From the IMG/VR virus record IMGVR_UViG_3300032053_005312, positions 14,650 to 78,649 of that record: DNA of 64,000 bases; one strand, written 5' to 3'. The translations under genes and the position numbers were made by a program. Of this stretch, positions 2 through 27,835 are shown in pieces. Under the pieces are notes generated by a model. It ran no database searches and had not been told where the DNA came from. It saw nothing but the letters and a program-made list of their open reading frames with translations. Positions within the stretch are counted from its first letter, which is position 1. The number at the start of each line of letters is the position of its first letter. This DNA is from a virus.

Positions 2-397
2 GGCGTTGTTAAATGGTCCTGTGGCAAGACCATATATACCAAAATCCTTGAAGGCATTGTGGGAAACGAAAGTAACCCAAATGTGCCTCGGCTTGGTGAT
101 ATAACCGATCCTAAAAAGGGATATGATCTGCATATCCGAAAGATTGTAAAGAATGGCGGTGGCTCTCACGGGTGGCCCGATTATTCTGCTTCTCAGTTCT
201 TGCCATCTACTCCGCTGGGCAAACCTAAACAAATCAAATTGTGGTTATCGCAATTGCATGATTTGTCTGCTTTGCGTATATTGTCTTCTAAGGAGAGCAT
301 GGAATCTGCTCTCGAAGACGTGTTTGGGTATCTCGGTGCTGTGAACCCAAAACAAAAATATCGCTCTCTGACTGACCCATTTGAACCAGCGTGGTAA
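2..397 (+). CDS. T4 gp32-like ssDNA-binding protein homolog, 5'-partial; usual acidic tail replaced by KYRSLTDPFEPAW
   Basis: Frame open from window start; GKTIYTKIL..LGDITDPKKGYDL..WPDYSASQF..LHDL follows the gp32-family C-terminal half. Confidence 0.65.
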   Translation, partial: GVVKWSCGKTIYTKILEGIVGNESNPNVPRLGDITDPKKGYDLHIRKIVKNGGGSHGWPDYSASQFLPSTPLGKPKQIKLWLSQLHDLSALRILSSKESMESALEDVFGYLGAVNPKQKYRSLTDPFEPAW

Positions 398-407
398 TAG
401 ATAACAT

Positions 408-821
408 ATGCTCCCTAGCAAGCTAAAACTCTTTTTTGATGGGTCATGCGAGCCAAAGAACCCCGGTGGAATAGCTGGGTATGGATGGCGTCTAGTTGAC
501 ATGGATGGCAACGAGGTCGGGACAGACCGTGGTGAGGTCTGCCGGGGTCCGGGAGCAACAAACAATATCGCAGAATGGGCAGGCGTAACGAATGGATTGC
601 GTTACCTAAAAGAAAAAGAATGGCAAGGCACGCTGGAAATATTCGGCGACTCTCAACTTGTCATTCGACAATTACTTGGTGAATACAAGGTTCGCAAAGA
701 TACCTTAATCCCTTATCACCAAGAGTGCATGGGTCTTTTGAAAGACCTTCAGTGGAAGGCAACCTGGATTCCACGGGAACAAAACGAAGAATGCGACAGA
801 CTTTCTAAACATGGAGATTGA
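408..821 (+). CDS. rnhA: Ribonuclease HI
   Basis: FFDGS..NPG, TNNIAEW, GDSQLV, WIPREQNEECDRL catalytic motifs. Confidence 0.92.
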   Translation: MLPSKLKLFFDGSCEPKNPGGIAGYGWRLVDMDGNEVGTDRGEVCRGPGATNNIAEWAGVTNGLRYLKEKEWQGTLEIFGDSQLVIRQLLGEYKVRKDTLIPYHQECMGLLKDLQWKATWIPREQNEECDRLSKHGD

Positions 822-880
822 TCGAGCTATATCCTTCCCATATAATTTGATATTCCAGCTTCAAATATGGGGAGATCAAT

Positions 881-2128
881 ATGCAGGTCAATTATCGTGT
901 TTCAGCATCGGGCTATCCTGTTTACCATGTTCAAATGAAAGATGCCTCGGTCTGCGAGGCACATATCGTGTCTAACTGTGGGTCTTCCCACGAAGATGCT
1001 GATTCTTGGGGCGTGGCACACTTCCTTGAGCATATGTGCTTCCAAGGAACTCCCACCAAGAATAAACACCAAGTAAGCCGTGAACAGTCCTTGATTGGTT
1101 CGTACAACGCATACACCAATCACTTCAATACTGTTTATCACTTTGATGCACTTAACGAAGACTTTGAGAAGGGATTTGGTCTTCTCAAAGAGTCCGTTTT
1201 TGATGCTTGTTTTCCTGAAAAGGAATTCGAGAAGGAAAAGAGCGTTATTGTCGAAGAGTGGAGGATGTATGACAATTATCCATCTGAACACTTTTCTAAT
1301 TATGTGATTTCAAAATGCTTTGGTGCCGATGAAGGCCACCCAATCATTGGCACAGTAGAATCTATTCGGGGAATGAATCCCGAAAAGCTGCATAGATTCA
1401 GAAATAAGTGGTACGGCAAAAACAATATCTTTGTTGTTATTGTCGGTAACTTGGATTTTGAAAAGGTGATGGAAGTCGTTGACAAAACACTCCCGCCAGC
1501 ACCAGAAGTAGAAACCAGCCCTGTATGTTTGAACGGCTTCTTTGCAGATCAACCGAAGTACAACTTTGAAACTGATCGTTTTGAACAAGCTGTGTTTGGC
1601 ATGGTTCGTAAGTGGTCATCCCCAAAAGAGGTTTACAAGAACCGCTATATTGCGAGCTTTTTTTCCTCTGCTTTGTCCAATTATATGCACGAGTATATTC
1701 GAGACGACCTTGGCTTGTGCTATGGTGTCTGGAGCAGTCGCTTCCGTCACTTTGACAATTCCAATTTGATGATCTCGATGCTCACCAATAATGGATATTT
1801 GGAGAAGGCCGAAACTGAACTTGCGAATTTGTTTGCCAAGATTAAATCAGAAGGCTTTCCGAATGAAGTCTTTGAGATCGCCAAAAAGAGTTTGACTTAT
1901 AATCAAGTCAAAACGCTTGATAACGTCGGCGGCATCGCTGGTTCGGTGGTCAATGGCGTACTCAGTTCAGTTGATAAGGATTGGTTCCTGACCGAAGGAC
2001 AAAAGGGCATGGACCCTGTTTGGCTCAAGTCTGTGGCCGCACAACTGACCCAGGAAGACCTGAAGGAATTTGCTAACACTTGGCTCGGCGACTTCACCAA
2101 GTTCGCTATGGTTTCGACCAAGAAGTAA
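881..2128 (+). CDS. M16 family zinc peptidase
   Basis: GVAHFLEHM (HxxEH), NAYT, EKSVIVEE, IRDDLGLCY. Confidence 0.9.
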   Translation: MQVNYRVSASGYPVYHVQMKDASVCEAHIVSNCGSSHEDADSWGVAHFLEHMCFQGTPTKNKHQVSREQSLIGSYNAYTNHFNTVYHFDALNEDFEKGFGLLKESVFDACFPEKEFEKEKSVIVEEWRMYDNYPSEHFSNYVISKCFGADEGHPIIGTVESIRGMNPEKLHRFRNKWYGKNNIFVVIVGNLDFEKVMEVVDKTLPPAPEVETSPVCLNGFFADQPKYNFETDRFEQAVFGMVRKWSSPKEVYKNRYIASFFSSALSNYMHEYIRDDLGLCYGVWSSRFRHFDNSNLMISMLTNNGYLEKAETELANLFAKIKSEGFPNEVFEIAKKSLTYNQVKTLDNVGGIAGSVVNGVLSSVDKDWFLTEGQKGMDPVWLKSVAAQLTQEDLKEFANTWLGDFTKFAMVSTKK

Positions 2129-2132
2129 ATGC

Positions 2133-2161
2133 TTTACAGGCTAGTTGATTTGTGGTACTAT
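2133..2161 (+). promoter_or_regulatory. sigma70-type promoter
   Basis: TTTACA-N17-TACTAT with TGG before the -10; same pattern recurs through the window. Confidence 0.6.
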
Positions 2162-2184
2162 CAGATGTAAGGAACGGAGATACC

Positions 2185-2733
2185 ATGAAGTACGTCGAAG
2201 CATTCTCACTGGAACACCCGGCTCAATATCGAGGCGGGCCTCTAGGCAATATTGTCCCAGGAGAAAACAGTTTGTTCCTGGGCGGTGGCATCACGGGCTG
2301 CTTTGATTGGCAGGCCGAAATGTGTCGCCTATTGAAAGATGTGGACGACCTCGTGGTACTCAATCCTCGGCGTAAGAACTGGCCGATGAATGATCCTAAT
2401 GATCCTAACGACCCTAACGACCCTAACGACCCTAACGACCCTAACGCCACTGACAAGCAGATCAGGTGGGAATACGAACATCTTCAGACGGCGAACATGA
2501 TTATGTTCTGGTTCGCCCCTGAGACGCTGTGTCCCATCACTCTGTTTGAATATGGCAAGTGGTTGGTTCGCAACAAGCCACTGTTCGTCGGTTGTGATCC
2601 GCAATACAAGCGGCTTCTCGACGTGCAGGTTCAGACTGCTCTGGAGCGACCTTTCCAGAAAGTCTATACGAGTCTTGAAGAAGTGGCAGATAGCATTCTG
2701 CTGCATCTCGACAGATACACGGAGACTGAGTGA
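2185..2733 (+). CDS. Nucleoside 2-deoxyribosyltransferase-like protein
   Basis: LFLGGGITGCFDWQ, LNPRR, QIRWE, PITLFEYG motifs. Confidence 0.8.
   Translation: MKYVEAFSLEHPAQYRGGPLGNIVPGENSLFLGGGITGCFDWQAEMCRLLKDVDDLVVLNPRRKNWPMNDPNDPNDPNDPNDPNDPNATDKQIRWEYEHLQTANMIMFWFAPETLCPITLFEYGKWLVRNKPLFVGCDPQYKRLLDVQVQTALERPFQKVYTSLEEVADSILLHLDRYTETE
2389..2442 (+). repeat. In-frame 9-bp tandem repeat encoding (NDP)x6
   Basis: aatgatcct x2 followed by aacgaccct x4. Confidence 0.95.
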
Positions 2734-2735
2734 CC

Positions 2736-2954
2736 ATGCTAGTTACGACTATTGAAGCGGTCTTCAATCCACAACTATGGCAAGAGTTGTGGCGTGAAGT
2801 CATGAAGGACGAAGTGCCGGGTTCAAAAGCCTACCTCAAGGCTGAATACTATATGGGGCAAGCAATTGCTTTATATGGAGCCGAAACGCTCATTAAGGAA
2901 CACAATGAGCGAGAAAAGATTTTCGATAAGCCTTTTGAACTTCTTGGTAAATAG
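2736..2954 (+). CDS. Hypothetical protein
   Basis: ORF coupled to upstream gene. Confidence 0.6.
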   Translation: MLVTTIEAVFNPQLWQELWREVMKDEVPGSKAYLKAEYYMGQAIALYGAETLIKEHNEREKIFDKPFELLGK

Positions 2955-2963
2955 ATAAGATAT

Positions 2964-3034
2964 GTCTCGGCCTGCGGATCAGGCGTTGGGCCTCCGAAGC
3001 CCGAATGAAAAAGGTTCAACTCCTTTCCGGGATA
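2964..3034 (+). tRNA. Non-canonical tRNA-Arg(CCG)
   Basis: Acceptor gtctcgg/ccgggat+A, anticodon arm ttgggc-ctCCGaa-gcccga, T arm aaagg-ttcaact-ccttt, reduced D arm cctg-cggat-cagg. Confidence 0.75.
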
Positions 3035-3039
3035 CTTTT

Positions 3040-3107
3040 GCCCCAGCCGTCGAACGGTGCCAGCACTTCTAAGGCAGGCTTAGTAGGTTTAACTCCTACC
3101 TGGGGTA
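3040..3107 (+). tRNA. Non-canonical or degenerate tRNA-Arg(TCT)
   Basis: Acceptor gccccag/ctggggt+A, D arm ccgt-cga-acgg, loop ctTCTaa in an imperfect stem, T arm gtagg-tttaact-cctac. Confidence 0.6.
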
Positions 3108-3129
3108 CTTGGTTGACCCATTTTAAGAA

Positions 3130-3202
3130 GCGGAATGCGCATAATGGCTGTTGCCCCTGATTTCCAATCAGGTCTGAATGGGTTCGATTCCCATATTCCG
3201 CA
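3130..3202 (+). tRNA. tRNA-Gly(TCC) with atypical D arm
   Basis: gcggaat/attccgc+A; cctga-ttTCCaa-tcagg; atggg-ttcgatt-cccat. Confidence 0.8.
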
Positions 3203-3206
3203 CTAT

Positions 3207-3278
3207 GCGGGTGTAACTCAATGGTAGAGTACCTGCCTTCCAAGCAGGTTGTTGTGGGTTCGAGTCCCATCGCCCGCT
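3207..3278 (+). tRNA. tRNA-Gly(TCC)
   Basis: Canonical cloverleaf, cctgc-ctTCCaa-gcagg, U73. Confidence 0.95.
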
Positions 3279-3283
3279 CTTAG

Positions 3284-3967
3284 CTAGTTGTCCAAAAACT
3301 CCGGCACGTCAACCGTGTGCGGCACCGGACTGAAAGAATCTCTCCAATGGACAGAATCTTCTAGTCCTTTGTCACGCAAAGCGTTAGCCAATTCAATTTC
3401 TGTTTTGGTTCTGGATGTTTCTGTTCTCCAAATAACTGCTGAGTAGTCGCCACTCCCATTGGAATTACGAAGGATCATGTCTGGAATTTGGCTTGGGCTG
3501 ACTTTAATCTCGCCAAATTTTGTTTTCACAAAACAATCATGATCTCTTATGATGATTTTGGTTGGAGTTCCGAGTTCCGATGTCATATTGTTCTGGTTGG
3601 TGCCTATAATGGAATTCGCTCCACCAAGAACTGCGTTGACACCAAGTCCTGTTCCAATTGTTCTTGCCATATATGGGAACAAACTTCCCCAAGGGATTCC
3701 AGACCCTAACAATAAACCAATGGCCGCAGCACCGAGAGCGCCATACTTCAACATTGTTTTGTTTTTGTCCCACCATTTTCTGGCCCAAGATTTTTCTTTT
3801 GGAGGAACTGTTGGGACTTGGATGCTTTTAGGCATTGGAGGGACTTGTGTGGCGACTTGGCGATTCACAACTTTGTCATCTAAAGCGTTTTGCTCTGCTT
3901 CCACCAAGCATCTGATTCCAATTTCTATATTGCGTCTATTTGTAAACTCTTTGAATGATGTGTTCAT
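3284..3967 (-). CDS. Hypothetical membrane-associated protein
   Basis: 227 aa with a Gly/Ala hydrophobic segment; N-terminal SFKEF. Confidence 0.7.
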   Translation of the reverse strand: MNTSFKEFTNRRNIEIGIRCLVEAEQNALDDKVVNRQVATQVPPMPKSIQVPTVPPKEKSWARKWWDKNKTMLKYGALGAAAIGLLLGSGIPWGSLFPYMARTIGTGLGVNAVLGGANSIIGTNQNNMTSELGTPTKIIIRDHDCFVKTKFGEIKVSPSQIPDMILRNSNGSGDYSAVIWRTETSRTKTEIELANALRDKGLEDSVHWRDSFSPVPHTVDVPEFLDN

Positions 3968-4053
3968 TTACGCCTAATCTTTTATCCATTGGTGGAAATC
4001 TAACATTTTGTGCTGCTATTATATAGAATTAAAAAGAAATATTTGGGTGTTTC

Positions 4054-4437
4054 ATGAAACAAGAAACTGAAGACAAGATAGTTGCAGAGTTCCCGGAATA
4101 CTTTCCTGATTTCCGTGGCGATCCAACTAAGACCTGTCTTGCGTGGGGACTTGCTGTCGGCGAAGGATGGAGTAACTTGTTCCATCAGTTGTGTCGTGAT
4201 ATAAAAGCGACCAACCCGCCTGAAGGCTTCAAGTTCGAGCAGGTCAAGGAAAAATTCGGTGGCTTGCGAGTGTATGCTTCTGGCGGCACGAGCGAGATCG
4301 GCAAATTGATTGATGCCGCCGAAAATGATTCCTATACGATCTGCGAAAATTGTGGAACTAAGGAAGGCGTGAAGTCCGAGGGCGCTTGGATTACTACCTT
4401 GTGTGGCAATTGTCGTGGGACGATCAAAGCCGTATGA
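4054..4437 (+). CDS. Conserved phage hypothetical protein with two CxxC
   Basis: VGEGW..QVKEKFGGLRVY..ICENCG..TLC pattern seen in many large phages. Confidence 0.8.
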   Translation: MKQETEDKIVAEFPEYFPDFRGDPTKTCLAWGLAVGEGWSNLFHQLCRDIKATNPPEGFKFEQVKEKFGGLRVYASGGTSEIGKLIDAAENDSYTICENCGTKEGVKSEGAWITTLCGNCRGTIKAV

Positions 4438-4443
4438 GTAAAT

Positions 4444-4515
4444 GCCGGTGTAACTCAGTGGTAGAGTAGTTGTTTTGTAAACAACCTGTCGGGGGTTCGA
4501 TTCCCTTCACCGGCT
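4444..4515 (+). tRNA. tRNA-Thr(TGT)
   Basis: Canonical cloverleaf, gttgt-ttTGTaa-acaac. Confidence 0.95.
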
Positions 4516-4566
4516 CTTTTTGACAAGCCTGAATTTGTGACCTATGCTTCAAGCAGGAGGCCACAA

Positions 4567-4767
4567 ATGCAAGTGATCTGTGCTTGGTGTAAAAAAGACA
4601 TGGGGCAAAAGGAACCGTTGGAAGAGAATTTGATCTCTCACGGTATTTGCCCCATCTGTGTTGCTGCTATTGAGGCAGAAATACATACTCTTCAGGATAC
4701 TTGCCCTGTGGGTTATTGCGATCCACAATCGGCAGAAATGGTACACCCGACTTTCCAAATATCGTGA
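4567..4767 (+). CDS. Small Zn-ribbon protein
   Basis: CAWCKK..SHGICPIC; strong SD aggagg. Confidence 0.7.
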   Translation: MQVICAWCKKDMGQKEPLEENLISHGICPICVAAIEAEIHTLQDTCPVGYCDPQSAEMVHPTFQIS

Positions 4768-5593
4768 AGTCGCCGCTCTTAGCGTGTACTCGACTGCCAT
4801 AGGAACCGTTAATGGTATTCATGAACGCCCTCAGTTCCGTGGCAGCGATCTTTCCATCTCCGTTCGGGTCGATGGCACTACTTTTCTCCGCCATAGCATT
4901 GAATATCTTTGCCATGATGTTTCCTTGAACATATGCAGCGCTTGTCTCATTGGCCGATGAACTGGCAAACATGGTTATGAGTTCTTGTTGACGAGGCGAC
5001 AAACTTCCAATATCAGGAAGCCCAGCACTCGCATAACAACTCAGTTGCCACCAGAATATTTTCTGATTGTTCTTTTCGGCAATATCAGCGATGACCTTGA
5101 GGACTTCTGATCTGCGTCCCAAGTTGTCTACACTCCCACCAGGGAAGCCGTGGCCAATAGTGAACAATATCAATGTGTCGCCCGGCGTAGCATCAGTCTT
5201 GATATACTGGTTCAAATATTGCGACAATGTTTCAATGGAGTACATTCTTTCAACGGTTTCTGGATCGGCCATTTGGAAGCCCATATACCGACCGTCTACG
5301 AAGTGGTTGCCGACAACCTTGATGTTTAGACCCTTCTCAGAAGCCTTCTGAGCAGCTTTAATGGCTAGATCGGCATCACCGTCAGCCATGTGTTCTCTGG
5401 AGTGCTTGATGCACAGCAGGCGAATCTTGGGGGTTGGTGTTTCGGCACCGTAGTACCGAGTTGGCACCGTGGTCTGTTGAGTTGAAGAATTGACATTGCC
5501 ACAGCCGACAATGCCGACAATGCCGAATATAAATACAAGCGGAAGTATCCACCCGAATAGGCGTCGATCCATCGTATACCTCATTTTGAACAA
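4667..5593 (-). CDS. Predicted lipoprotein with caspase-like (clan CD) peptidase domain
   Basis: Signal peptide ending IVGC; LILFTIGHG and QLSCYA spaced like a His-Cys dyad; EF-hand-like DPNGDGKI. Confidence 0.6.
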   Translation of the reverse strand: MFKMRYTMDRRLFGWILPLVFIFGIVGIVGCGNVNSSTQQTTVPTRYYGAETPTPKIRLLCIKHSREHMADGDADLAIKAAQKASEKGLNIKVVGNHFVDGRYMGFQMADPETVERMYSIETLSQYLNQYIKTDATPGDTLILFTIGHGFPGGSVDNLGRRSEVLKVIADIAEKNNQKIFWWQLSCYASAGLPDIGSLSPRQQELITMFASSSANETSAAYVQGNIMAKIFNAMAEKSSAIDPNGDGKIAATELRAFMNTINGSYGSRVHAKSGDFTIFGKSGVPFLPIVDRNNPQGKYPEEYVFLPQ

Positions 5594-5633
5594 TCCTTGT
5601 TGCTATATCTAGTTATGAAAGTGGGGACGATAA

Positions 5634-6026
5634 ATGGTAATCGTTGGAAGAATATCCTTGGTCGATCACCCTACGGCTGTTCACCTACAAGTTGGCACGA
5701 TTCAGGGCAAAACCGTTGTCGTGGGTCGCCACTATGACGAAGGCACCTTTGGATTTTTCATTCCAAATGGGGCGATTGTGCCGGACAAGCTGGCTGACGA
5801 GATGTGGGTGAAGGGCAAATTGTCCGGCAAAAACAAGGATCGAGTCAAAGCCAGGGAGATGCACGGCGTTTTTTCCGAAGGACTGTTTTACGGCAGTCGG
5901 TACTTTGTGGTAGAATTTGGTGAAAAGGTCTACATCGACAGCCCACGCTGGAACCCTGCCTGGGTTGAGGGTCAAGATGTGGCGAACGAAGTGGGGGTTC
6001 TTGAAAGTGGCCCGCCATCAACTTAA
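5634..6026 (+). CDS. OB-fold tRNA-binding-like protein (resembles N-domain of DRB0094-type RNA ligases)
   Basis: HPTAVHL..VVVG..IPNGAIVP..RVKAREMHGVFSEGL..EGQDVA. Confidence 0.6.
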   Translation: MVIVGRISLVDHPTAVHLQVGTIQGKTVVVGRHYDEGTFGFFIPNGAIVPDKLADEMWVKGKLSGKNKDRVKAREMHGVFSEGLFYGSRYFVVEFGEKVYIDSPRWNPAWVEGQDVANEVGVLESGPPST

Positions 6027-6069
6027 AATACTGAGTCAGTAGTTCATACATAAGGAGTATCGCTTCAAT

Positions 6070-6408
6070 ATGAGTGAAACAATAACGCTCCCGGAGCCAA
6101 AAGAGAAAGTCGATAACAAGACTGATAACAAGACTAAGCGTCAACCACCATATAACGTCATTCTGATGAATGACGACGATCACACGGTCGAATATGTTGT
6201 GACGTTGTGCCAAAAAATCTTTGGCTTCCCAATAGAAAAGGGTCTGTTGAAAGCTAAAGAGGTCCACGAAAAGGGTCGGTCTATTTTGTGGACTGGCGCT
6301 CTCGAATTGGCCGAGTTGAAGCAAGAACAAATTCACGCTGTTGGTAAAGACCCGCAGATTAACCGCTGCAAGGGTAGTATGACTGCGGTATTGGAACCGG
6401 CAGCGTAA
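6070..6408 (+). CDS. clpS: Clp protease adaptor ClpS
   Basis: PPYNVILMNDDDHTVEYVV, EVHEKGRS. Confidence 0.93.
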   Translation: MSETITLPEPKEKVDNKTDNKTKRQPPYNVILMNDDDHTVEYVVTLCQKIFGFPIEKGLLKAKEVHEKGRSILWTGALELAELKQEQIHAVGKDPQINRCKGSMTAVLEPAA

Positions 6409-6418
6409 CAGGAGAACA

Positions 6419-6883
6419 ATGAGAGGAATATTGGTTTCGCTGGCCGTCGTATTCGGTTTTATAATCGTGGTCGCCCTCGTGCATCAAAAGCCAAGCGAGC
6501 CACAGCAGATTGCTGTTATATCAACAGAATCACCCCTTCCCGCTCCCACCCAGGTTGAGCCTCAAGCAAAAATAGATAATCCTCCGGCAAGCATGAAGAT
6601 GCCGGAACCAATGGTAATCACGTCATATAAAGATGTGAATCGCATTCCAGATGCAGGTCTTCGCACCTTCGTTCGCCGCAAGGCAGATTTTCGTCACGAT
6701 AATGTTCTCTTCTTTGAGTGGAAGGGTATTTCTGGCGACAAGATGATTGGTGAGGTTAAAGACAAAAAATACACGATCACTTTACATCCTGCATATACTG
6801 TCATGTTTGGACAAGAAGTTGTGCATCGGCAGATATTTGTGATTCCAGCTTCGTATCCTTACGTTTGCGAAGTCGCCAAGTGA
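6419..6883 (+). CDS. Hypothetical membrane-anchored protein
   Basis: N-terminal TM helix and Pro-rich linker. Confidence 0.7.
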   Translation: MRGILVSLAVVFGFIIVVALVHQKPSEPQQIAVISTESPLPAPTQVEPQAKIDNPPASMKMPEPMVITSYKDVNRIPDAGLRTFVRRKADFRHDNVLFFEWKGISGDKMIGEVKDKKYTITLHPAYTVMFGQEVVHRQIFVIPASYPYVCEVAK

Positions 6884-6905
6884 GTGCATGTCTATACTGT
6901 AGATC

Positions 6906-7139: not shown

Positions 7140-7141
7140 AC

Positions 7142-7402
7142 ATGGCAAGAATCAGTAAAATCATTTGGATTAAAGATGATGACGGGACGATTTCTTTGGA
7201 CACAATTCCTGGCATGACTCGCCAGGATATATTCCAAGCATCCCTTATCATAACTGACAAAGGCCGCATTCTGAAAAATCGTCTCGGCCCGGACAATCAG
7301 ATAATTCCATCGTTCGATCTCGTGAAGCAAGCTGTCAAGCCGCCCAAGAAATCCAAATATCGTTCGATATACGATTCAATGGATATGAATGCCGATCTAT
7401 GA
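7142..7402 (+). CDS. Small protein with DnaB-like ILKNRLGP segment and KYRSIYD tail
   Basis: ASLII..ILKNRLGP resembles the last motif of DnaB-type helicases. Confidence 0.55.
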   Translation: MARISKIIWIKDDDGTISLDTIPGMTRQDIFQASLIITDKGRILKNRLGPDNQIIPSFDLVKQAVKPPKKSKYRSIYDSMDMNADL

Positions 7403-16040: not shown

Positions 16041-16892
16041 GTGATCCACGTCAAAGAAGACAAACTCCGTTCAGTCCTGGCAACAATGACAGGGACCAGA
16101 GCCGAAGGCTTGCTTAGGTTCCACGACGATCACATCAGCGAAATTCTTTCAGCCAAAGGCTCATCAGGCGGCAATCATCAAGCCTGGAGCGGCGGTCTTC
16201 ACGACCATCTTGTGCATTGCTTTGTGTTAGCACAAGACCTCTATAAGCTCTTTCACGAGCGTATCGGCCCTGGTCCTCATGCCGGGCAAGACATCTATGG
16301 CGTACACGATTCACGCCCAATCCCGTTTTCTCTCGAAAGCGCCCTCGTGGTGCTTTATTTTCATGATATAGAGAAAATATTCAAATACGGAAACAAACCA
16401 CATCGGTATCCTGAGCGTCTCATCGAAGCGAAGGACGCATGGTATCTTGGTATTTTGCCAACCAAATACGGCATCGTATTTGACGATCAAGAATACAACG
16501 CATTGAAGTACGCCCACGGCGAAGGCGACGACCATCGTAAAGATCAAAGAGTCGCCAGCCCCTTGGCGGGTTTCATTCATGCCATAGATTATCTATCGGC
16601 ACGAGTCCTGTGGCAGATCAAAGACTTCGATTACGGTCTGGTCCCCAGGGAGCCAGTATTGCCATCAGCCATTCAGAGTCTCCATTCCACTTGCTGCAAG
16701 GCAGTGGGCAAGCGTGTTAAGTACACCGGCACCAATGGCGATGAATACGACAAAATCAATCACGGCCTGTATGTCGAGGGCGAAGGAATCTTCGTCATCT
16801 TCTCCGTCAGCCTGAATCGAGCGATGGTTCAGCACGATGATCGCACCACTATTTGCGTTGATCCCATTACCGTTGAAATTCTCGGTGACTAA
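16041..16892 (+). CDS. HD-domain phosphohydrolase
   Basis: HQAWSGGLHDH, YFHDIEK, YAHG, HAIDYLSAR. Confidence 0.78.
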   Translation: MIHVKEDKLRSVLATMTGTRAEGLLRFHDDHISEILSAKGSSGGNHQAWSGGLHDHLVHCFVLAQDLYKLFHERIGPGPHAGQDIYGVHDSRPIPFSLESALVVLYFHDIEKIFKYGNKPHRYPERLIEAKDAWYLGILPTKYGIVFDDQEYNALKYAHGEGDDHRKDQRVASPLAGFIHAIDYLSARVLWQIKDFDYGLVPREPVLPSAIQSLHSTCCKAVGKRVKYTGTNGDEYDKINHGLYVEGEGIFVIFSVSLNRAMVQHDDRTTICVDPITVEILGD

Positions 16893-20163: not shown

Positions 20164-20186
20164 CCGCCCTCAGAGAAAAGAACACA

Positions 20187-20639: not shown

Positions 20640-20766
20640 ATTCCAAGTCGATATTGAGGGCCATGAAGAACTTGATTGTGAATCGTGTTAGTCGAACAAT
20701 GTCACTACGAACAACGACATTGAATGGTGTCGATCCATTCTTTCACCGTGGTTATGGAACCGAAAA

Positions 20767-21183
20767 ATGAAGACGGTAATTGAACAACTGGCCGATTTCA
20801 TTAAGAACTCCGAGGACAGCCACACGAACAACTTGTGGTTGCAGGACGATATAATGAAGGTATACGTCCGCAAAGGGCGGCACATGGTATATCCAGGTAA
20901 GCTCTCTACGACTCTGGATATTGCCGCCGTCGAAGTGGATGAAGACAAGCAAAGTCAGGGACATTGGACGGCTTTTCTCGATAAGGCCCACGAGATGAAT
21001 CCGTGGGAGGCAACATATGTCGAGAATACGTTGAATCCTATTCTTGCTACATCCCTCATTCGACATGGGTGGATGCCGGTTCCGGGTGCGTATCCAGAAT
21101 CCTTCTTCATGCCGAAAGATTCGGCAAAGTATTTCGAGCAGCAGTTTTTACAACAAAAGTTTTCCAGAAGAAATGCCTACTGA
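20767..21183 (+). CDS. GNAT-like protein
   Basis: LDIAAVEVDEDKQSQG motif A-like; YVEN. Confidence 0.55.
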   Translation: MKTVIEQLADFIKNSEDSHTNNLWLQDDIMKVYVRKGRHMVYPGKLSTTLDIAAVEVDEDKQSQGHWTAFLDKAHEMNPWEATYVENTLNPILATSLIRHGWMPVPGAYPESFFMPKDSAKYFEQQFLQQKFSRRNAY

Positions 21184-21472
21184 AACAGCAACGTGCATGG
21201 GTTGTTTTGTGAATAACCCAAGAATATGGGATAATCAACATTTGGAGTCCTTGCGGACCAATCCGACAACCTTCAGTGCGATTGGCTTGACCGCCGATGA
21301 GAAATTGTGTCTCAAGCATTTGGCCGATGCGTGGAATTTGTTCGTCAATATGGCCGCAAAGCATCCAGACGACGACAGTGAATTCCATACGGCAATACAT
21401 GACGCACAAAAAATGATCGCTCTGCGGGTTGCTCGTCGAGTGGACACAGACGTATGGAAGCAGCCAGAATGA
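21173..21472 (+). CDS. Hypothetical protein
   Basis: LADAWNLF..HPDD..FHTAIH..ALRVARR phage-type motif. Confidence 0.6.
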   Translation: MPTETATCMGCFVNNPRIWDNQHLESLRTNPTTFSAIGLTADEKLCLKHLADAWNLFVNMAAKHPDDDSEFHTAIHDAQKMIALRVARRVDTDVWKQPE

Positions 21473-21960
21473 AAGTAATATCCGGTGGGCAAACTGGAAG
21501 TGATGAAGCTGGTCTTCGAGCGGCGAAAGCGTGCGGTTTTGAAACTGGAGGATGGTTGCCCCAAGGCTGTAAAACTCTTGATGGGACACGACCAGACCTA
21601 TTGACAGAATACGGCATGAAAGAGCATAGTAGTTCTCTCTACCCGCCCAGGACTGAGGCAAATGTCAAGGACAGTTGTGGCACCATAAGATTTGCTAGGA
21701 CATTCTCTTCAGCCGGGGAAAAGTGTACTCTCCGTGCGATCAAGTGGTTTAATCGTCCGTATTTGAACGTGGATATAAATAAGCCGATAGATAAACAGGA
21801 AGTATTGTCTTGGCTTAAAGAGCATGATATAAAGATTCTCAACATTGCTGGGAATTCTGAGGAAACCGCTCCCGGCATTGGCGATTTCGTCTTTAAGTAT
21901 CTCATGGGTGTCTTTTCCGACGTAAAAAACGGGCTTGACAACATGACCCATGCGGAGTAA
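21469..21960 (+). CDS. Circularly permuted YpsA SLOG-family protein
   Basis: KVISGGQTGSDEAGL, TGGWLP, YPPRTEANVKDS, LNIAGN. Confidence 0.85.
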   Translation: MKVISGGQTGSDEAGLRAAKACGFETGGWLPQGCKTLDGTRPDLLTEYGMKEHSSSLYPPRTEANVKDSCGTIRFARTFSSAGEKCTLRAIKWFNRPYLNVDINKPIDKQEVLSWLKEHDIKILNIAGNSEETAPGIGDFVFKYLMGVFSDVKNGLDNMTHAE

Positions 21961-22008
21961 AAACTGATGTTGGACAAATTTACGACCCCTATCCAAAAGG
22001 AAGACCCG

Positions 22009-22269
22009 ATGGCTGCAACTGCAACGACCCAGACCCAAATCCAAACTCAGTCTCAAAATGCTTGTCCCGTTCAGGGTGCAGTTGAGCAACTGAGCGCCAC
22101 ATCCGAAACTTGTGAAGGCACGGGATGCTGCGAGAACACTCTTTGCCAGGAGTCCCTCCGAGAGCGGGCTTATTTGCTGTGGGAGAAGGCTGGTTCCCCA
22201 ATCGGCGATGGCGTGGATTTCTGGATCACCGCCGAGCAAGAACTGTTGGCCGATGCCACCGCTGAATAA
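22009..22269 (+). CDS. DUF2934 domain protein
   Basis: LRERAYLLWEKAGSP.G...FW..AE.EL. Confidence 0.8.
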   Translation: MAATATTQTQIQTQSQNACPVQGAVEQLSATSETCEGTGCCENTLCQESLRERAYLLWEKAGSPIGDGVDFWITAEQELLADATAE

Positions 22270-22298
22270 ACCGGCCTGCCTTGATGGTTTGCTTCATA

Positions 22299-22338
22299 AA
22301 CGCCACAACCACTGACAAAAATCAGTGGTTGTGGCGTT
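22299..22338. repeat. Perfect 17-bp inverted repeat
   Basis: aacgccacaaccactga-caaaaa-tcagtggttgtggcgtt. Confidence 0.85.
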
Positions 22339-22460
22339 AGTACGGTTGTGTCAGGTCACGATCCAGAACTGCTGGCTTATGTCCTCAGTGTCACAGCAAA
22401 AGGCGTGCTGGTTTTTCACGATCACGATGAGGAATTTTTTCCGTGGTCGCTACATAGGGC

Positions 22461-22808
22461 ATGGGCAAGAATGATACTTTGGTTGAAGGACTTCACTATT
22501 ACATTGACGGAAAAGGCAAGTGGGTATTTACCTCTTACTTTTTGCTCAATCGTGGGTATTGTTGTCACAACGGTTGTCTTAACTGTCCATATGGTGCTAA
22601 CATGAAAATCGAACCGGGCCAATATATCTGGAGATCGAAAGACACAGACTTTCCAGTAACGGTTATTGAGTCCATTGGCAAAGGCCCGGACGGGCGATTC
22701 TATGTAAAGATCGCTGATAGCAACACATCCGTTCCAGCCGATGAACTCATAAAGGTTCCGAATGTGGCGCAAGCATCACGACGACCCCAATCGAAAAGAC
22801 TATTTTGA
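22461..22808 (+). CDS. DUF5522-like Cys-rich domain fused to a small beta domain
   Basis: YYID..WVFT..LLNRGYCCHNGCLNCPY. Confidence 0.7.
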   Translation: MGKNDTLVEGLHYYIDGKGKWVFTSYFLLNRGYCCHNGCLNCPYGANMKIEPGQYIWRSKDTDFPVTVIESIGKGPDGRFYVKIADSNTSVPADELIKVPNVAQASRRPQSKRLF

Positions 22809-22873
22809 TGATTTGGTGATTGGTGGTTTACTTATTGTTGTCCTTATTCTGCTGGGGTTTATGTCCTTTCATG

Positions 22874-22925
<52 letters not shown>

Positions 22926-22962
22926 AATCCATCACATTCATCCGATGTAGGATATATAAAGC

Positions 22963-23379
22963 ATGAAAAGGATATGCACATTTAATGAATTCATGGTCTT
23001 GAAGGAAGATGATCGGCGAACTGGTAGCAAAACAGGGCTATATCCTCTAGGATATGGTGGAATTGGGTTATACCCCGATGCAGACATGATGACTCATTCT
23101 GCTGATGCGATCCTTTATGTCACAATAGACAACCGATTGTTCAAGAACGGAGATTCAGCCCCATTCAGCATTGCTCACTTGCCCGGCCACAAGCAATATG
23201 GCGACATGGCGAATTCAGGCGAGAATGAACCATATGACATTCGCCATCTTCCTGGCGATGTTGTTCCCCACAAGGACAGCCCATTGGGTGGCAAGTCCAT
23301 ACCGTTCAAGAGTTTTGTAAAGTTGGTAGAAAAGCCAAAAGAAATTTCCCCGCCCGATTCCCCGAACCTTCCCAGGTAG
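22963..23379 (+). CDS. Hypothetical protein, possibly virion-associated
   Basis: N-terminal TFNEF..E; LYPLGYGGIGLYP. Confidence 0.65.
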   Translation: MKRICTFNEFMVLKEDDRRTGSKTGLYPLGYGGIGLYPDADMMTHSADAILYVTIDNRLFKNGDSAPFSIAHLPGHKQYGDMANSGENEPYDIRHLPGDVVPHKDSPLGGKSIPFKSFVKLVEKPKEISPPDSPNLPR

Positions 23380-23392
23380 TTAGGGTCTTGTC

Positions 23393-23764
23393 ATGAAGCG
23401 TAATCCGATTGCCAACTATTGTAAACAACAAGTAGAGGGCTGGGACAAGCTGCCTGAGTTCATGAACTTCGCCCCTCTTGGGGAAGAGGACTTTTGTTGC
23501 AGTTTTCTTCGTCGTGCTGACGGGATTCAAATGTTGGCGTCAGTGAAAGACCTAAACTCCCTCAATACCATCCACATCTCTTTGGCTCCGATTCGAGATT
23601 GCCGCAAAGACTGGACTGATGAAGAACATAGTGGACACATATTCGATGTGGCGTTTGAAGTAGTCGAGTCGTTTTTCCCCGGTCGAAGGTTTGCACGACA
23701 GCCCGATGATCTCCGCAGACCCCAAGTGAAGCATTACTTCGCCATTCTGGAGGCCAATGAATGA
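23393..23764 (+). CDS. Hypothetical protein
   Basis: ORF coupled to metG. Confidence 0.65.
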   Translation: MKRNPIANYCKQQVEGWDKLPEFMNFAPLGEEDFCCSFLRRADGIQMLASVKDLNSLNTIHISLAPIRDCRKDWTDEEHSGHIFDVAFEVVESFFPGRRFARQPDDLRRPQVKHYFAILEANE

Positions 23765-25407
23765 ACGAGTTCCACATTTCAGAAAAAGACAACAACACCA
23801 CGTTCGTCACCACGGCGATTGATTATCCGAATGCTATGCCGCATATTGGTACAGCTTTCGAGAAGATCGGTGCAGACGTGTACGCCCGGTTCCGTCGATT
23901 CCAGGGTCGTGATGTATATTTCACGATGGGCAATGACGAGAACACGGTGAAAGTGCTTAAAGCGGCGAAGGCTGTGGACAAGCATCCTCAGCCATATGTC
24001 GATGAAATGGCCGAAGCGTTTAAGGCTGTGTGGAAAGAACTCAATATTTCCTTTGACGATTTCATTCAGACCAGCGAAGATCGGCATCTGTTGGGCGTTC
24101 AGAGATTTCTGCGTGCTGTTAATGCTGCTGGATATATCGAGAAGCGACCATACAAGGCTCTCTATTGTGAGGGCTGTGAAGAGTTCAAGAGTCCAAATAG
24201 CTTGGACCATGCAAAGCGATGCCCGAACCATACTGGCACACCGTTGGTGGAGCGGGAGGAAGAGAATTACTTCTTTCTTCTATCTGCATTCAAGCAGCGT
24301 GTGGCTGATTTGATTTATCCTACTCCATTCCTCACTGCTTTCCTGAGTATCGAGCCAGAGTCTCGTTACAACGAAGTCACCAAGTTCATCAACACGGAAC
24401 TGACGGATATTTCCATCAGTCGCCGCAATGAAGGCTGGGGCATTCCAATTCCTTGGGATGATACACAGGCCACCTATGTCTGGTTCGACGCTTTGTTGAA
24501 CTATTTGACCGTGATTGGTTTCGGGAACGATTGGGAGAAATTCCAAAAGTATTGGCCTGCTGAAGTTCACTTCATCGGCAAGGACATTACTCGGTTCCAC
24601 TGTGCATTGTTCCCGGCAATGTGCATGGCATACAACGAAGGCTGTGATAAGTTGGGTGAACCTCAATACAAGTTGAAGGCTTTCCCTCAGCGTGTATTCG
24701 CCCACGGATTCGTGAATCAAAAGAAGGGAAGTCAGGTTGTCAAGATTTCCAAGAGCGGAGATTCAATCCAACCTGGAGAACTGATTGAGCAGTTCGGGTC
24801 GGATGCGTATAGATATTACTTCTTGTCGAAGTTCAACTACGATACGGACGGCGAATATAGCCTGGACCACTTCAGAGAAGTGTATAACGCTGACCTCGCC
24901 AACTCTTTGGGCAACCTCGTGAGTCGTACTGTAGGAATGTCGATGCAGTATTTCGACGGGAAGATTCCACCGATGGCCGCAGAAGGCCAGACTTGGCTTG
25001 ATGAGAAGACGGCGTTGGAATACGAGCAATTTATTGTGGATTGTTGTTCGTATCGGCACGCTCTTGAATTGACGTGGAAGATCATCTTCAACGCCAACAA
25101 GCTGATCGAGGATTCCAAGCCGTGGGAGTTGGTTAAGTTGCCCGGCAACACCTGCGGTCAGGTGTTGGGCCAACTTGTGGGCAGTCTGAGAATCATCAGT
25201 CTGTTGATCCGACCGTTCACTCCAGCGGTGGCCGAGAAGATTTACACGACGTTCCAGTGGGCTGAAGGTTGGAATGAACTCGATTGGGAGTTCGTCAAGA
25301 AGTTGTCTGAAAACAACTTCCTGGGACTCGAAAACGGTATTGCCATCAATAGGAATGTTTTAGATAATGCCGGAAAGTTTCCAGTGTTGTTTCCGAGGGC
25401 CAAATGA
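23761..25407 (+). CDS. metG: Methionyl-tRNA synthetase
   Basis: TTAIDYPNAMPHIG, DDFIQTS, YCEGCEEF, YVWFDALLNY, IGKDITRFH, KISKS, LANSLGNLVSR, KPWEL. Confidence 0.93.
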   Translation: MNEFHISEKDNNTTFVTTAIDYPNAMPHIGTAFEKIGADVYARFRRFQGRDVYFTMGNDENTVKVLKAAKAVDKHPQPYVDEMAEAFKAVWKELNISFDDFIQTSEDRHLLGVQRFLRAVNAAGYIEKRPYKALYCEGCEEFKSPNSLDHAKRCPNHTGTPLVEREEENYFFLLSAFKQRVADLIYPTPFLTAFLSIEPESRYNEVTKFINTELTDISISRRNEGWGIPIPWDDTQATYVWFDALLNYLTVIGFGNDWEKFQKYWPAEVHFIGKDITRFHCALFPAMCMAYNEGCDKLGEPQYKLKAFPQRVFAHGFVNQKKGSQVVKISKSGDSIQPGELIEQFGSDAYRYYFLSKFNYDTDGEYSLDHFREVYNADLANSLGNLVSRTVGMSMQYFDGKIPPMAAEGQTWLDEKTALEYEQFIVDCCSYRHALELTWKIIFNANKLIEDSKPWELVKLPGNTCGQVLGQLVGSLRIISLLIRPFTPAVAEKIYTTFQWAEGWNELDWEFVKKLSENNFLGLENGIAINRNVLDNAGKFPVLFPRAK

Positions 25408-25592
25408 GCAGATTGATGTTGGTTCTAGGATTAGTCATTGGGTTTTGGGCGGGCCATTGGTTCGCCCGAACTTCATGGCATCAACGATGGTATGCTCAGT
25501 GGTATGAGGGGTTTCTCAACGGCGCTGTTGTTGCAGCAATACTGGTGGGCATCTACTTCATTGTCATAAGAAATTGGAAACAATCTTCTTAG
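25404..25592 (+). CDS. Small membrane protein
   Basis: Two TM segments; ATGA overlap. Confidence 0.6.
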   Translation: MSRLMLVLGLVIGFWAGHWFARTSWHQRWYAQWYEGFLNGAVVAAILVGIYFIVIRNWKQSS

Positions 25593-25667
25593 GGGTTGCA
25601 CGGTGAGTCCAATCGGTAAGGCGCAAGTCGCTCCGATTAACTGAGGGTTCGATTCCCTCCAACTCCA
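25592..25667 (+). ncRNA. Anticodon-less Ala-acceptor tRNA-like RNA resembling the tmRNA tRNA-like domain
   Basis: ggggttg/caactcc+A (G3.U70, A73), stem aatcgg/ccgatt capped by ggc-GCAA-gtc, T arm gaggg-ttcgatt-ccctc. Confidence 0.68.
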
Positions 25668-25669
25668 CT

Positions 25670-25954
25670 ATGAATGAAAAACCAGCCGATGGCGTCCGAG
25701 GCTTCTTTCTCTACAGTCCGTTTTCGCATCGACACTTCTTCCGTGTTTACGGAGAAGTCGATCCGACGACGGGCCATAAGACGTTCACCGATTACAAGGT
25801 GTGCGCCGAAGATATAGAAGTCACGATTGAAGCGAATGGGTTGTCCCTGTATGAAGGGGACGAAGATAAAAACCGCCTTGATTGGTCCAGCCGTGTCTTA
25901 GGAAGAGATGGCAAAGACCACTTGGATGTGCGAACACCAAAAAAGGAACAGTAA
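25670..25954 (+). CDS. Hypothetical protein
   Basis: ATG 2 nt after the RNA discriminator. Confidence 0.65.
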   Translation: MNEKPADGVRGFFLYSPFSHRHFFRVYGEVDPTTGHKTFTDYKVCAEDIEVTIEANGLSLYEGDEDKNRLDWSSRVLGRDGKDHLDVRTPKKEQ

Positions 25955-26034
25955 TGGGACGGCCCGTAGAATTTTCTTGATACGATCACTCCTTTATTGT
26001 GTCTGAAAAGATATAATGAACCAAGGAGTAAATC

Positions 26035-26247
26035 ATGGATAAAGAATACGCAAAAGCTATTTCCAACTTCGAGCAAGCGGGAGCGCACCTGGGAAACTTC
26101 GCCAACCTATTGTTCACATATCACAAATCGCTATGTGAATCCGGCTTCCAGAGAGACGAAGCATTGGAATTGGTGAGGGAACTCCAAACGACCTTATTTG
26201 CACAGGCTTTCAACTTCGGACCACAGAAGCAAGATGATGACGACTAA
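26035..26247 (+). CDS. Hypothetical protein
   Basis: SD aaggag; GFQRDEALEL motif. Confidence 0.65.
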   Translation: MDKEYAKAISNFEQAGAHLGNFANLLFTYHKSLCESGFQRDEALELVRELQTTLFAQAFNFGPQKQDDDD

Positions 26248-26353
26248 AGTAATCATTGTTAAGCCAGAAAGACTTGCAGGATCGGTCGCAGAGAAATCTG
26301 GCGACCGATTTCGTTATCCATGCAGATGACTTCCTTGCGGAACTGGAGCGAAC

Positions 26354-26611
26354 ATGAGTGATTGCGAAGTGGCCCAATTCAGCAGAATGGCCATCCCTTT
26401 GATGAGGAGGATATATCCTCAGCTTATTGCCAACCAGATATACAGTGTTCAGCCATTGGCTTGCCCAACTGGTTTAGTGCATTATTTGCGATATAAATAT
26501 TCTGAGAACAAAGGCAGCACCATCAATACCGATGGTTGGATCATCAAGTCCAAGAAGAAAAAGATTTGGCGTGACATCAACGATCCGTGGGAGCCTTCTA
26601 GCAATGGCTGA
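26354..26611 (+). CDS. Mini-protein carrying a T4 gp23-like major capsid fragment and WRDINDPWE tail
   Basis: IPLMRRIYPQLIANQIYSVQPLACPTGLVHYLRYKY follows the conserved gp23 segment RR.P.LIA...VQP..GPTG. Confidence 0.75.
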   Translation: MSDCEVAQFSRMAIPLMRRIYPQLIANQIYSVQPLACPTGLVHYLRYKYSENKGSTINTDGWIIKSKKKKIWRDINDPWEPSSNG

Positions 26612-26834
26612 GAATATATGGTATCGTATTCGCAAGCATCTTGGGATGTTGTCCTATGAGGAAAGTCGCATTGAATCGAGTGAGCAGGTAAAGAACTCGA
26701 TCAGGGCGCAAATGATACATCCCGATGACGTTAATTGGTCTGATGGAATCAAGACCGAGAATATTCCCAAAAAAGATAAACTGCGGCCCAGGTCGATTCT
26801 CGAAGATTGGGGAGTAACCCAAGATTCGGGCTGA
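26604..26834 (+). CDS. Hypothetical protein with RSILEDW tail
   Basis: Coupled ORF. Confidence 0.55.
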   Translation: MAENIWYRIRKHLGMLSYEESRIESSEQVKNSIRAQMIHPDDVNWSDGIKTENIPKKDKLRPRSILEDWGVTQDSG

Positions 26835-26878
26835 ACCTTTTGGCAGCGGCGATCTCTAGTAGTGTAAGGAGAAACATC

Positions 26879-27283
26879 ATGGCAGTAAAGCAAGTTATCG
26901 TTTGGCGACACGATTTAGGTTGTCGAGTTGGCAAGAAGATGTCGCAAGCGGGTCATGCTGCTTTGGCCGACTTGTCGAACACGATTCGTGACAATGTTGA
27001 TGCCGAAGGTAATGTATCGTTCAAGCTGTCGCCTGCACAGTTTGAGTGGTATTTGACGAACTTCCGTAAGATCGTTCTCCGTGTTGACAGTGAGGCCGAC
27101 CTGTTGCTTCTGTACCATCTGGCGCAGGAAGTGGGGTTGCCGACTGAACTCATCATCGACAGTGGTTTGACGGAATGGGATCAGCCCACAAAGACTTGCA
27201 TCGCTATCGGGCCAGCAGAAGATGCCGAGATTGACGAGATCACTGGTGAGCGTGGCCCTTTGGGAAGATTGAAGTTGATGTGA
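26879..27283 (+). CDS. pth2: Peptidyl-tRNA hydrolase, Pth2 type
   Basis: KQVIVWRHDL..GKKMSQAGHA..KIVL..IIDSGLTE..TCIAIGP. Confidence 0.9.
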   Translation: MAVKQVIVWRHDLGCRVGKKMSQAGHAALADLSNTIRDNVDAEGNVSFKLSPAQFEWYLTNFRKIVLRVDSEADLLLLYHLAQEVGLPTELIIDSGLTEWDQPTKTCIAIGPAEDAEIDEITGERGPLGRLKLM

Positions 27284-27325
27284 CCTTTACTGATTGGTGG
27301 TTTTTGTGGTGTATAATACAATACC

Positions 27326-27835
27326 ATGATTGCAACCATCATAATTGCCGCAGCAACTTTTTTCACCCTGATGGCCTTGACGTATTGCTGTCTACGTTTA
27401 TGGTCGGCACGGAATGCTTTACAACATAAACTTTCCGTGGTAGAATCAACCGTAGCAGAGCAGCATCTTGCCCTTAGTGCATACGAGGATCGGCTGAGTA
27501 AAGTCGAGGCTGTTCAAGAAGAAGAATTGACGCAAGATCAGGCTGAATACAGAGATCAGCTACAGGCACAATACGCTGCCCTGTTCAAGCAGATCGAAGA
27601 CAAAATGAAAAACGATCTGAAGACGGCGAGAACCGAAACTTCAGATTTGGTGAAGAAGAGTCGTGCGGAATTCGACAAAAAGTTGAAGGACGAGTTCAAG
27701 AAAGCCTGTGAACAGATCAAGTTTAGCGAAATCGAATACAAACGAACCATCACCAAAAAGCGGAAAGAATTCAGTCGCAAAAATGCAAAGAACGCCAAAC
27801 CTCAGAGGATATGGCGATACATAGATGAAGAGTAG
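27326..27835 (+). CDS. Membrane-anchored coiled-coil protein
   Basis: N-terminal TM, long helical region, ends RIWRYIDEE. Confidence 0.7.
   Translation: MIATIIIAAATFFTLMALTYCCLRLWSARNALQHKLSVVESTVAEQHLALSAYEDRLSKVEAVQEEELTQDQAEYRDQLQAQYAALFKQIEDKMKNDLKTARTETSDLVKKSRAEFDKKLKDEFKKACEQIKFSEIEYKRTITKKRKEFSRKNAKNAKPQRIWRYIDEE

Follow-up and report, generated by a model that had tools for sequence, protein, structure and literature searches.

For a 64,000-nucleotide stretch of viral DNA (the window; bases 14650 to 78649 of the 78,649-bp IMG/VR virus record G000), we analyzed a short peptide tag that is carried by five open reading frames (ORFs) of otherwise unrelated proteins. The tag proved to be real; selection acts on its peptide sequence, and it is conserved across long evolutionary distance. 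Because it is short, disordered, independent of position, selected as a peptide, and present on many unrelated proteins, and because it appears to replace the recruiting tail of a single-stranded DNA-binding protein (SSB), we regard it, with somewhat better than even confidence, as a short linear motif that docks on one common partner. Its carriers would serve as adaptors in which a lysine linker joins an interaction module to a tether. The binding to a single partner and the adaptor logic are what we infer from these properties.

The record is 16% complete according to CheckV, and the full phage genome is therefore probably near 490 kb. Three further records, all fetched whole, were used for comparison: a close relative of 340,341 bp (G001, 69% complete), a tag-rich record of 532,729 bp (G002), and a tag-less record of 527,112 bp with the same capsid type (G003), the latter two being rated 100% complete. 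Between G000 and G001, five proteins compared from the middle and right half of the window were 93 to 98% identical, the gp32-like protein was approximately 88% identical, and the small tagged ORFs were 67 to 93% identical.

All five ORF ends quoted in the original prediction were confirmed by translation (Table 1). For the 76-aa protein (aa, amino acids), the start is most likely the ATG at 26604, which overlaps the stop codon of the mini-capsid gene, rather than 26532. The fifth tail, WRYIDEE, had been described as truncated. It is a genuine variant of the tag, since many tags of G002 end straight after the core (YRSIDDE, WRSIDD, or YRSIDDP, followed by the stop codon) and the G002 ortholog of the 169-aa membrane protein ends in FRSIDDE.

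Table 1. Tagged genes of the window and the encoded ClpX (window positions unless a record is named)
Feature	Coordinates	Strand	Tail (stop codon)	Content
gp32-like SSB, 3' part	2..397	+	KQKYRSLTDPFEPAW (395-397)	Tag KQK-YRSLTDPF-EPAW at 350-394; PHROG SSB families
Whole gp32-like SSB gene	G000:C1:14201-15046			281 aa
86-aa protein, origin not found	7142..7402	+	KSKYRSIYDSMDMNADL (7400-7402)	Tag KKSK-YRSIYDSM-DMNADL at ~7346-7399
Mini-capsid protein, 85 aa	26354..26611	+	KKKKIWRDINDPWEPSSNG (26609-26611)	gp23-type N-arm segment, lysine run, tag WRDINDPW-EPSSNG from ~26546
76-aa protein	26604..26834	+	KLRPRSILEDWGVTQDSG (26832-26834)	Tag KKDKLR-PRSILEDW-GVTQDSG at ~26769-26831
169-aa protein	27326..27835	+	PQRIWRYIDEE (27833-27835)	N-terminal membrane helix and coiled coil; short tag PQRI-WRYIDEE at 27800-27832
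Phage ClpX	51074..52381	+		Zinc-finger N-domain and AAA+ (Pfam); candidate receptor only

The core of the tag consists of three to six basic residues (K or R), an aromatic position (Y or W, sometimes F, H, or P), R, a small polar position (S, or D, N, T, or Y), I or L, any residue, and D or E. The core is often followed by P and W or F, which are optional, and then by a short acidic or EP-x-W tail. Across 46 aligned tails, the arginine was invariant and the I or L two residues further on was nearly so. The tags of G002 were almost uniform (KKK-YRSIDD-PWE..), and those of G000 and G001 were more varied; besides the 15-mer of the SSB tail, the tag peptide can take the form KKKKYRSIDDPWE. The tag was C-terminal in approximately 45 of 47 cases, with 0 to 15 residues separating the core from the stop. 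Two tags of G002 lay near the N-terminus, both on C-terminal fragments (the C-terminal half of the capsid protein and a middle piece of gp32). Since these two tags are N-terminal and the distance to the stop varies, a free C-terminus is not required by the tag.

For a count in the whole record, the motif of the original prediction was written as a regular expression, [YWP]R[SDY][IL].[DE].[WFM], and run on the six frames of the 78,649 bp. It matched exactly four times, each time in a plus-strand ORF, 4 to 7 residues ahead of the stop, and after at least 78 residues of ORF. In 200 genomes simulated with a first-order Markov model, a mean of 0.135 matches was found anywhere and 0 at ORF ends. This expression had been written after the data were seen; therefore, an independent position matrix was trained solely on the tags of G002 and applied at a threshold of at least 12 bits. 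In G000, the matrix returned four sites, all among the five ORFs of the window, with the 86-aa protein scoring 21.8 bits and the 76-aa ORF (PRSILEDW) falling below the threshold. Eight sites were found in G001 (seven of them C-terminal), 40 in G002 (35 within 15 residues of a stop), and 0 in the 527-kb G003. Enrichment was also measured without bias by tallying every 4-mer within the 22 C-terminal residues of each ORF in the six frames of G002. The top C-terminal 4-mers were RSID (36 observed versus 1.46 expected, p = 5e-37), SIDD, and YRSI. Over-representation at C-termini genome-wide, which the original prediction had proposed as a check, was thus strong in this complete relative.

Within one genome, the codons of the tag were mixed, with serine encoded by both AGY and TCN and arginine by both CGN and AGR. 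The ratio of nonsynonymous to synonymous substitution rates (dN/dS) relative to the G001 orthologs was 0.21 for the SSB, 0.15 for the 86-aa protein, 0.24 for the mini-capsid protein, and 0.19 for the 169-aa protein. The mixed synonymous codons and the low dN/dS in these four of the five genes bear out the proposal that the DNA is not conserved among tag copies and that selection acts on the peptide. The gene for the 76-aa protein has a fast-evolving body (dN/dS of 0.84), yet its tag is conserved in the G001 ortholog. An intron or intein junction and a DNA repeat were ruled out as sources of the shared ending: there was no DNA conservation, no Cys/Ser-first intein block was present, and the downstream sequences differed.

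The gp32-like protein of the window matched SSB families of PHROG, and PF08804 was found on its homologs. Fifteen gp32-like homologs with 44 to 80% identity all end in K-x-K-[YFW]-R-[SDN]-[IL]-x-x-P-[FW]-x-P-[AS]-W. In the next tier of homologs, which are canonical gp32 proteins of 325 to 352 aa with 31 to 37% identity, a long acidic tail ending in LADDDFMKELEGM stands in the place of the tag. This difference between the two tiers suggests that the tag has replaced the canonical gp32 acidic tail in this clade. In the AlphaFold2 (AF2) model of the gp32-like SSB, the predicted local distance difference test score was above 90 for the core and 45 to 56 for the tail, which was disordered and not packed on the core, as expected of a linear motif. 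The SSB core was rejected as a binder of its own tail, no docking being seen in this single-chain model. The C-terminal region of T4 gp32 is known to recruit partners, and a 23-residue peptide from it binds the Dda helicase (PMC11551737). At their other end, the gp32-like proteins begin with a conserved Gly-Pro-Leu repeat (MAVNLGPLGP...; G000:C1:14201-14290, immediately left of the window; homologs P0035, P0036, and P0045), where the canonical gp32 relatives begin with MALDFEPLD. The Gly-Pro-Leu N-terminus may be the counterpart of the gp32 cooperativity (B) domain.

The mini-capsid protein matched positions 1 to 51 of the Pfam Gp23 model (E = 2e-13), and the rest of the HK97-fold capsid protein is not present. 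It is therefore not a full-length gp23-type major capsid protein, full relatives of which are common and have 477 to 498 aa. The mini-capsid family comprises 28 proteins of 72 to 124 aa on contigs of up to 603 kb, and members with as little as approximately 50% identity retain the capsid segment as well as the ending KKKK-IWRDI-x-[DE]-PWEPS. The original prediction had hinged on homologs keeping the tag, which the 28 members of this family and the 15 gp32-like proteins do. G002 encodes both a mini-capsid protein and the full-length capsid protein. In a tree of their common segment, a single branch (support 92/87) parted the mini-proteins from the full-length N-arms, and the G002 mini-protein did not group with the G002 capsid protein; because of this topology, the tree points to an old duplication maintained by selection and not to recent copying. 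In G000 (window 26354-27283) and in G002 (58150-59182) alike, pth2, the gene for peptidyl-tRNA hydrolase 2, directly follows the mini-capsid gene. The tagged gene for the membrane coiled-coil protein comes next after pth2, and this synteny is kept at approximately 50% protein identity.

The carriers were generally small, at about 57 to 287 aa. For the 86-aa protein of the window, no family or parent was found using Pfam, PHROG, and a parent search; the ESM Atlas showed no informative relative, and the model there was disordered. The additional carriers of G001 were a 75-aa ORF, a 91-aa minus-strand ORF ending at G001 298176 (HRTIDDDWTPPW), and a 291-aa terminase paralog that has the ATPase domain only and shares 41% identity with the genuine TerL of G002 (681 aa), in which both domains are present. 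A second, very divergent terminase-ATPase-like ORF (26% identity to the N-domain of the G002 TerL) lies at 525376-526002 of G003, besides the genuine TerL. Since G003 is tag-less, ATPase-only terminase paralogs may be wider in distribution than the tag.

In G002, the carriers included five segments of the major capsid protein (residues ~55-104, 218-310, 318-368, 400-448, and 438-463), with 43 to 87% identity to its own capsid gene; the mini-capsid segment was 87.5% identical to the capsid protein of the same genome. Further carriers were an N-tagged C-terminal half of the capsid protein, an N-terminal portion of a prohead protease with 39% identity to the genuine protease that adjoins the capsid gene, and a piece with a WPxLxNPYVP motif that recurs at the end of a large gene upstream of the protease. 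This 687-aa gene (G002 335144-337207) ends in two copies of W/YPxLxNPYVPxSPWD. The motif resembles the PYVPL segment of the capsid protein itself, and the tagged mini-proteins copy one such motif. Three gp32-related proteins were also tagged, the N-fragment of gp32 at its C-end and the middle fragment at its N-end, as were a PrkA fragment and a C-terminal piece of a protein (283 aa) for which the window has a gene as well (16041-16892). Among the carriers overall, three were membrane anchored, and one of these is the 169-aa protein of the window. The original prediction had described several carriers as derived from core phage proteins, and with five capsid segments, the prohead protease, the scaffold-like motif, the terminase ATPase, and gp32 pieces, this turned out to be stronger than claimed.

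A profile of the tail was further searched against 1.84 billion representative proteins and gave 23 matches, 21 of which were small tagged proteins (57 to 225 aa), including capsid segments and scaffold-motif pieces. P0056 and P0073 were discarded as false positives, being long repetitive proteins. One match was read by eye as a ParB-like piece, and Pfam gave no family for it. Other contigs repeated the pair seen in G002, with a scaffold-motif piece followed by a capsid segment.

As for the partner, the original prediction had taken the motif for a docking or sorting tag and had named ClpX among the possible receptors. A peptide-level tag on unrelated proteins, some of them derived from core proteins, was upheld, and the specific partners proposed were not supported. 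ClpX is encoded in the window and conserved in G001 and G002, but it is equally present in the tag-less G003 and so gains no support from co-occurrence; the variable distance to the stop and the N-terminal copies also misfit a classical C-terminal degron. The M16 peptidase encoded beside the SSB gene was ruled out as a general partner, since the complete and tag-rich G002 lacks it. No sliding clamp domain of the gp45 type (PF09116) or the DnaN/beta type (PF02768) was found in G000, G001, or G002. A phyletic subtraction for genes present in G002 and in G000 or G001, and absent from G003, left 108 candidates, based on a crude ORF call, and a list of this size did not single out a receptor.

A 540-aa protein with WGR and PARP-catalytic domains is encoded in the window, and the loci noted for it and for the genes described next are window 62055-63677 (plus strand), G002 95695-97356, and G002 523648-525459. 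The protein is 72% identical between G000 and G002 and 49 to 56% identical in other huge phages, and it is absent from G003. The N-tagged capsid fragment of G002 is flanked by macro-domain and PARG-like genes, both assigned by eye from motifs. The conservation of the PARP protein together with these flanking genes suggests an ADP-ribose module in these phages. In the PARP-bearing huge phages G007, G008, and G010, the RSID[DE] core occurred at background count. This was a weak test, as variable tags like those of G000 would escape a pattern at the DNA level.

In the docking reading that we favor, the tag on its disordered tail would tether the carriers to one common partner. In the SSB of the gp32 family, it occupies the place of the C-terminal "A-domain" peptide. 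The other carriers are small bipartite proteins, the module of which is in many cases a piece copied from a phage machine (the capsid, the PYVP scaffold-like motif, the N-part of the protease, the terminase ATPase, or gp32). Such a module would bind where its parent protein binds, namely, at the prohead or on DNA, and the tag would then link this site to the common partner or compete with the SSB for it. Several points weigh against this scheme. Approximately two-thirds of the carriers have no detectable parent, and "fragment of own protein" is thus not universal. No partner was identified among the M16 peptidase, clamp, ClpX, PARP, and SSB core candidates, and that all carriers bind the same receptor is assumed. 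Alternatively, the tag could act by self-pairing, as a modification site, or as a nascent peptide on the ribosome, and a partner common to an SSB and to capsid fragments has no obvious rationale. In a wider version, to which we attach a small but appreciable probability, a clade of huge phages would possess a "module plus universal tag" system, in which dozens of mini-proteins would each display one conserved segment of a phage machine (capsid, scaffold, protease, terminase, or SSB) or of a protein of the kinase or ParB type and would be wired through the tag to a single effector or compartment, forming a natural adaptor or bait library that controls assembly or defeats sensors or rivals able to recognize these segments.

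The head-related origin of most identifiable parents (capsid segments a to e, the prohead protease, the scaffold-like motif, and the terminase ATPase) could also mean that the tag is a prohead or capsid targeting peptide, which would bind the inner HK97-fold shell or the scaffold core so that some 8 to 45 small proteins would be loaded into the head for injection. The carriers are small, as internal or ejection proteins are, and the I/L-x-D/E triplet of the tag recalls the T4 prohead protease site, which is L/I-x-E. However, the gp32-type SSB is tagged throughout its family and is not an expected capsid cargo, three carriers are membrane anchored, and the genuine head genes adjoining the capsid gene are all untagged. 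The acidic residue, moreover, is mostly Asp, with Pro usually next to it, which sets the tag apart from the L/I-x-E cleavage sites in which the N-terminus of the capsid protein itself is rich. Targeting to the capsid is, in our view, rather unlikely. The same fragments might instead be baits or decoys against host immunity or rival phages. Bacterial defenses such as Lit/Gol, CapRel, Avs, and retrons sense conserved segments of capsid proteins, terminases, proteases, and SSBs; the mini-proteins would display these segments while the tag neutralizes, mislocalizes, or destroys the binder, or the fragments would poison assembly in co-infecting relatives. In line with this, the fragments are the most conserved capsid segments, with the mini-protein of the window aligning with the start of the Pfam Gp23 model, and the terminase fragment is the ATPase domain only. 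The position of the mini-capsid gene beside pth2 among translation genes in G000 and G002, outside the head module, would fit a role other than assembly. A sensor-binding decoy would normally trigger the sensor, however, and the membrane proteins, the full-length SSB, and the parentless proteins do not fit. The mini-capsid segment of G002 is also so close to its own capsid protein that no discrimination against rivals would result, and we judge a bait or decoy role to be distinctly unlikely.

Delivery to an AAA+ unfoldase, either the phage ClpX or a host protease, appears improbable, and slightly more so than a decoy role. The carriers would then be SspB-like adaptors or self-destructing decoys, the tag being a tether or a degron. 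SspB, with its ClpX-binding tail, has the same layout of module, linker, and terminal peptide, and the zinc-finger N-domain of ClpX, which binds SspB-type tails, is present in the phage enzyme that G001 and G002 conserve. The occurrence of ClpX in the tag-less G003 argues against this, as do the 0 to 15 residues past the core and the two N-terminal tags, which do away with the need for a free C-terminal carboxylate, and a degron on the main SSB would be odd. A tag that works without a receptor is very improbable. It could be a self-pairing, charge-patterned "sticker" that clusters the carriers, an Arg or Ser modification site, or a nascent-peptide signal to the ribosome. A basic block followed by an acidic block with aromatics, as well as the tagging of gp32 fragments at opposite ends, would suit such a mode of action, and the distribution of the WGR and PARP protein and the macro-domain and PARG-like neighbors would suit modification in particular. 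By contrast, the PARP-bearing G007, G008, and G010 have no RSID[DE] excess, the variable stop distance and N-terminal copies argue against a stop-linked arrest peptide, and self-association of a 12-mer is pure conjecture. Finally, the carriers could be decaying gene fragments without function whose endings agree by coincidence or through a DNA-level repeat, as several of them are fragments of larger genes and the gene at 26604-26834 evolves fast. Against this stand the enrichment statistics, the mixed synonymous codons, the low dN/dS in four of the five genes, and the conservation of fragment and tag together to approximately 50% identity, and a lack of function is excluded.

The G000 record contains 36 tRNA genes and encodes MetRS, GluRS-like and ArgRS-like proteins, PTH2, the M16 peptidase, an HNH endonuclease, ClpX, a sigma factor, and the WGR and PARP protein. 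The tRNA genes lie in a large translation island at G000:C1:1-25000 (up to approximately 10350 in the window) and at window 57016-57087. They are interleaved with small ORFs, several of which are tagged, and the MetRS, GluRS-like, ArgRS-like, and PTH2 genes and an RRF-like ORF are located nearby. In a plus-strand ORF at window 22762-22950, an (ATG)n tract encodes 16 Met residues in a row (MSFHVMMMMMMMMMMMMMMMMKIHHIHPM). DNA identical to the G000 record is present in sediment metagenomes, and the listing for it includes no RNA data set.

Terminal docking peptides common to hubs such as SSBs, sliding clamps, and encapsulins organize these hubs. The tag thus offers an experimental handle on how infection by a huge phage is organized, as a peptide of 12 to 15 residues can be used to fish for the partner, and the 8 sites in G001 and approximately 40 in the 533-kb G002 indicate the scale on which it is used. 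It bears on two open questions, namely, how a phage builds and regulates a very large capsid and how phages handle defenses that sense these conserved proteins. In practice, the tag is also a key for annotating dozens of anonymous small ORFs in the clade.

Literature searches by topic and by peptide strings returned no description of the tag, which appears to be undescribed so far. Likewise, there appears to be no described precedent for systematic, conserved, tagged pieces of a phage's own capsid protein, protease, terminase, and SSB. Several known systems are comparable in part. On internal head proteins of T4, the capsid targeting sequence takes up the N-terminal ~10 residues and closes with an L/I-x-E site for the prohead protease. 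Like this sequence and the cargo-loading peptides of encapsulins, the tag is one short terminal peptide on many unrelated small proteins, many of them head related, in an HK97-fold capsid system. Unlike the T4 sequence, it has a different consensus, is C-terminal in nearly all cases, mostly contains Asp followed by Pro, occurs on SSB and membrane proteins, and has no adjacent protease site. In its C-terminal position and HK97-type context, the tag could be of the encapsulin kind; the consensus of the encapsulin peptide is unlike that of the tag.

With the C-terminal ClpX-binding tail of SspB, the tag shares the arrangement of a binding module, a flexible linker, and a short terminal docking peptide, in a phage that encodes a ClpX with an N-domain. 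There is no sequence similarity to the SspB tether, however; ClpX does not covary with the tag, and the tag is not confined to the extreme C-terminus. Clamp-binding motifs are likewise found on unrelated proteins, for example, at the C-termini of T4 gp43, gp33, and gp55, in the RB69 polymerase peptide, and as the bacterial QL[SD]LF. The tag resembles these motifs as a terminal hydrophobic-acidic motif after basic residues, and the S-L-x-D-x-F spacing of the SSB tail is similar to that of the RB69 peptide. The tag differs from them in that G000, G001, and G002 yielded no clamp gene of the gp45 or beta type and that its carriers are mostly not replication or transcription proteins.

The recruiting tails of SSBs include the A-domain of T4 gp32, the tip of the Escherichia coli SSB C-terminus (SSB-Ct), and the T7 gp2.5 tail. 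Like them, the tag is a short disordered peptide that ends an OB-fold SSB, in the same position as the canonical acidic tail of gp32. Unlike the gp32 tail, it consists of a basic run and Y/W-R-S-I/L-x-D/E-P-W and is not acidic in composition, can be N-terminal, and is also carried by dozens of mini-proteins outside replication, such as capsid fragments and membrane proteins. The sharing of a tail by unrelated proteins has a precedent in T7, in which the SSB and the helicase have a common acidic aromatic tail that docks on the polymerase.

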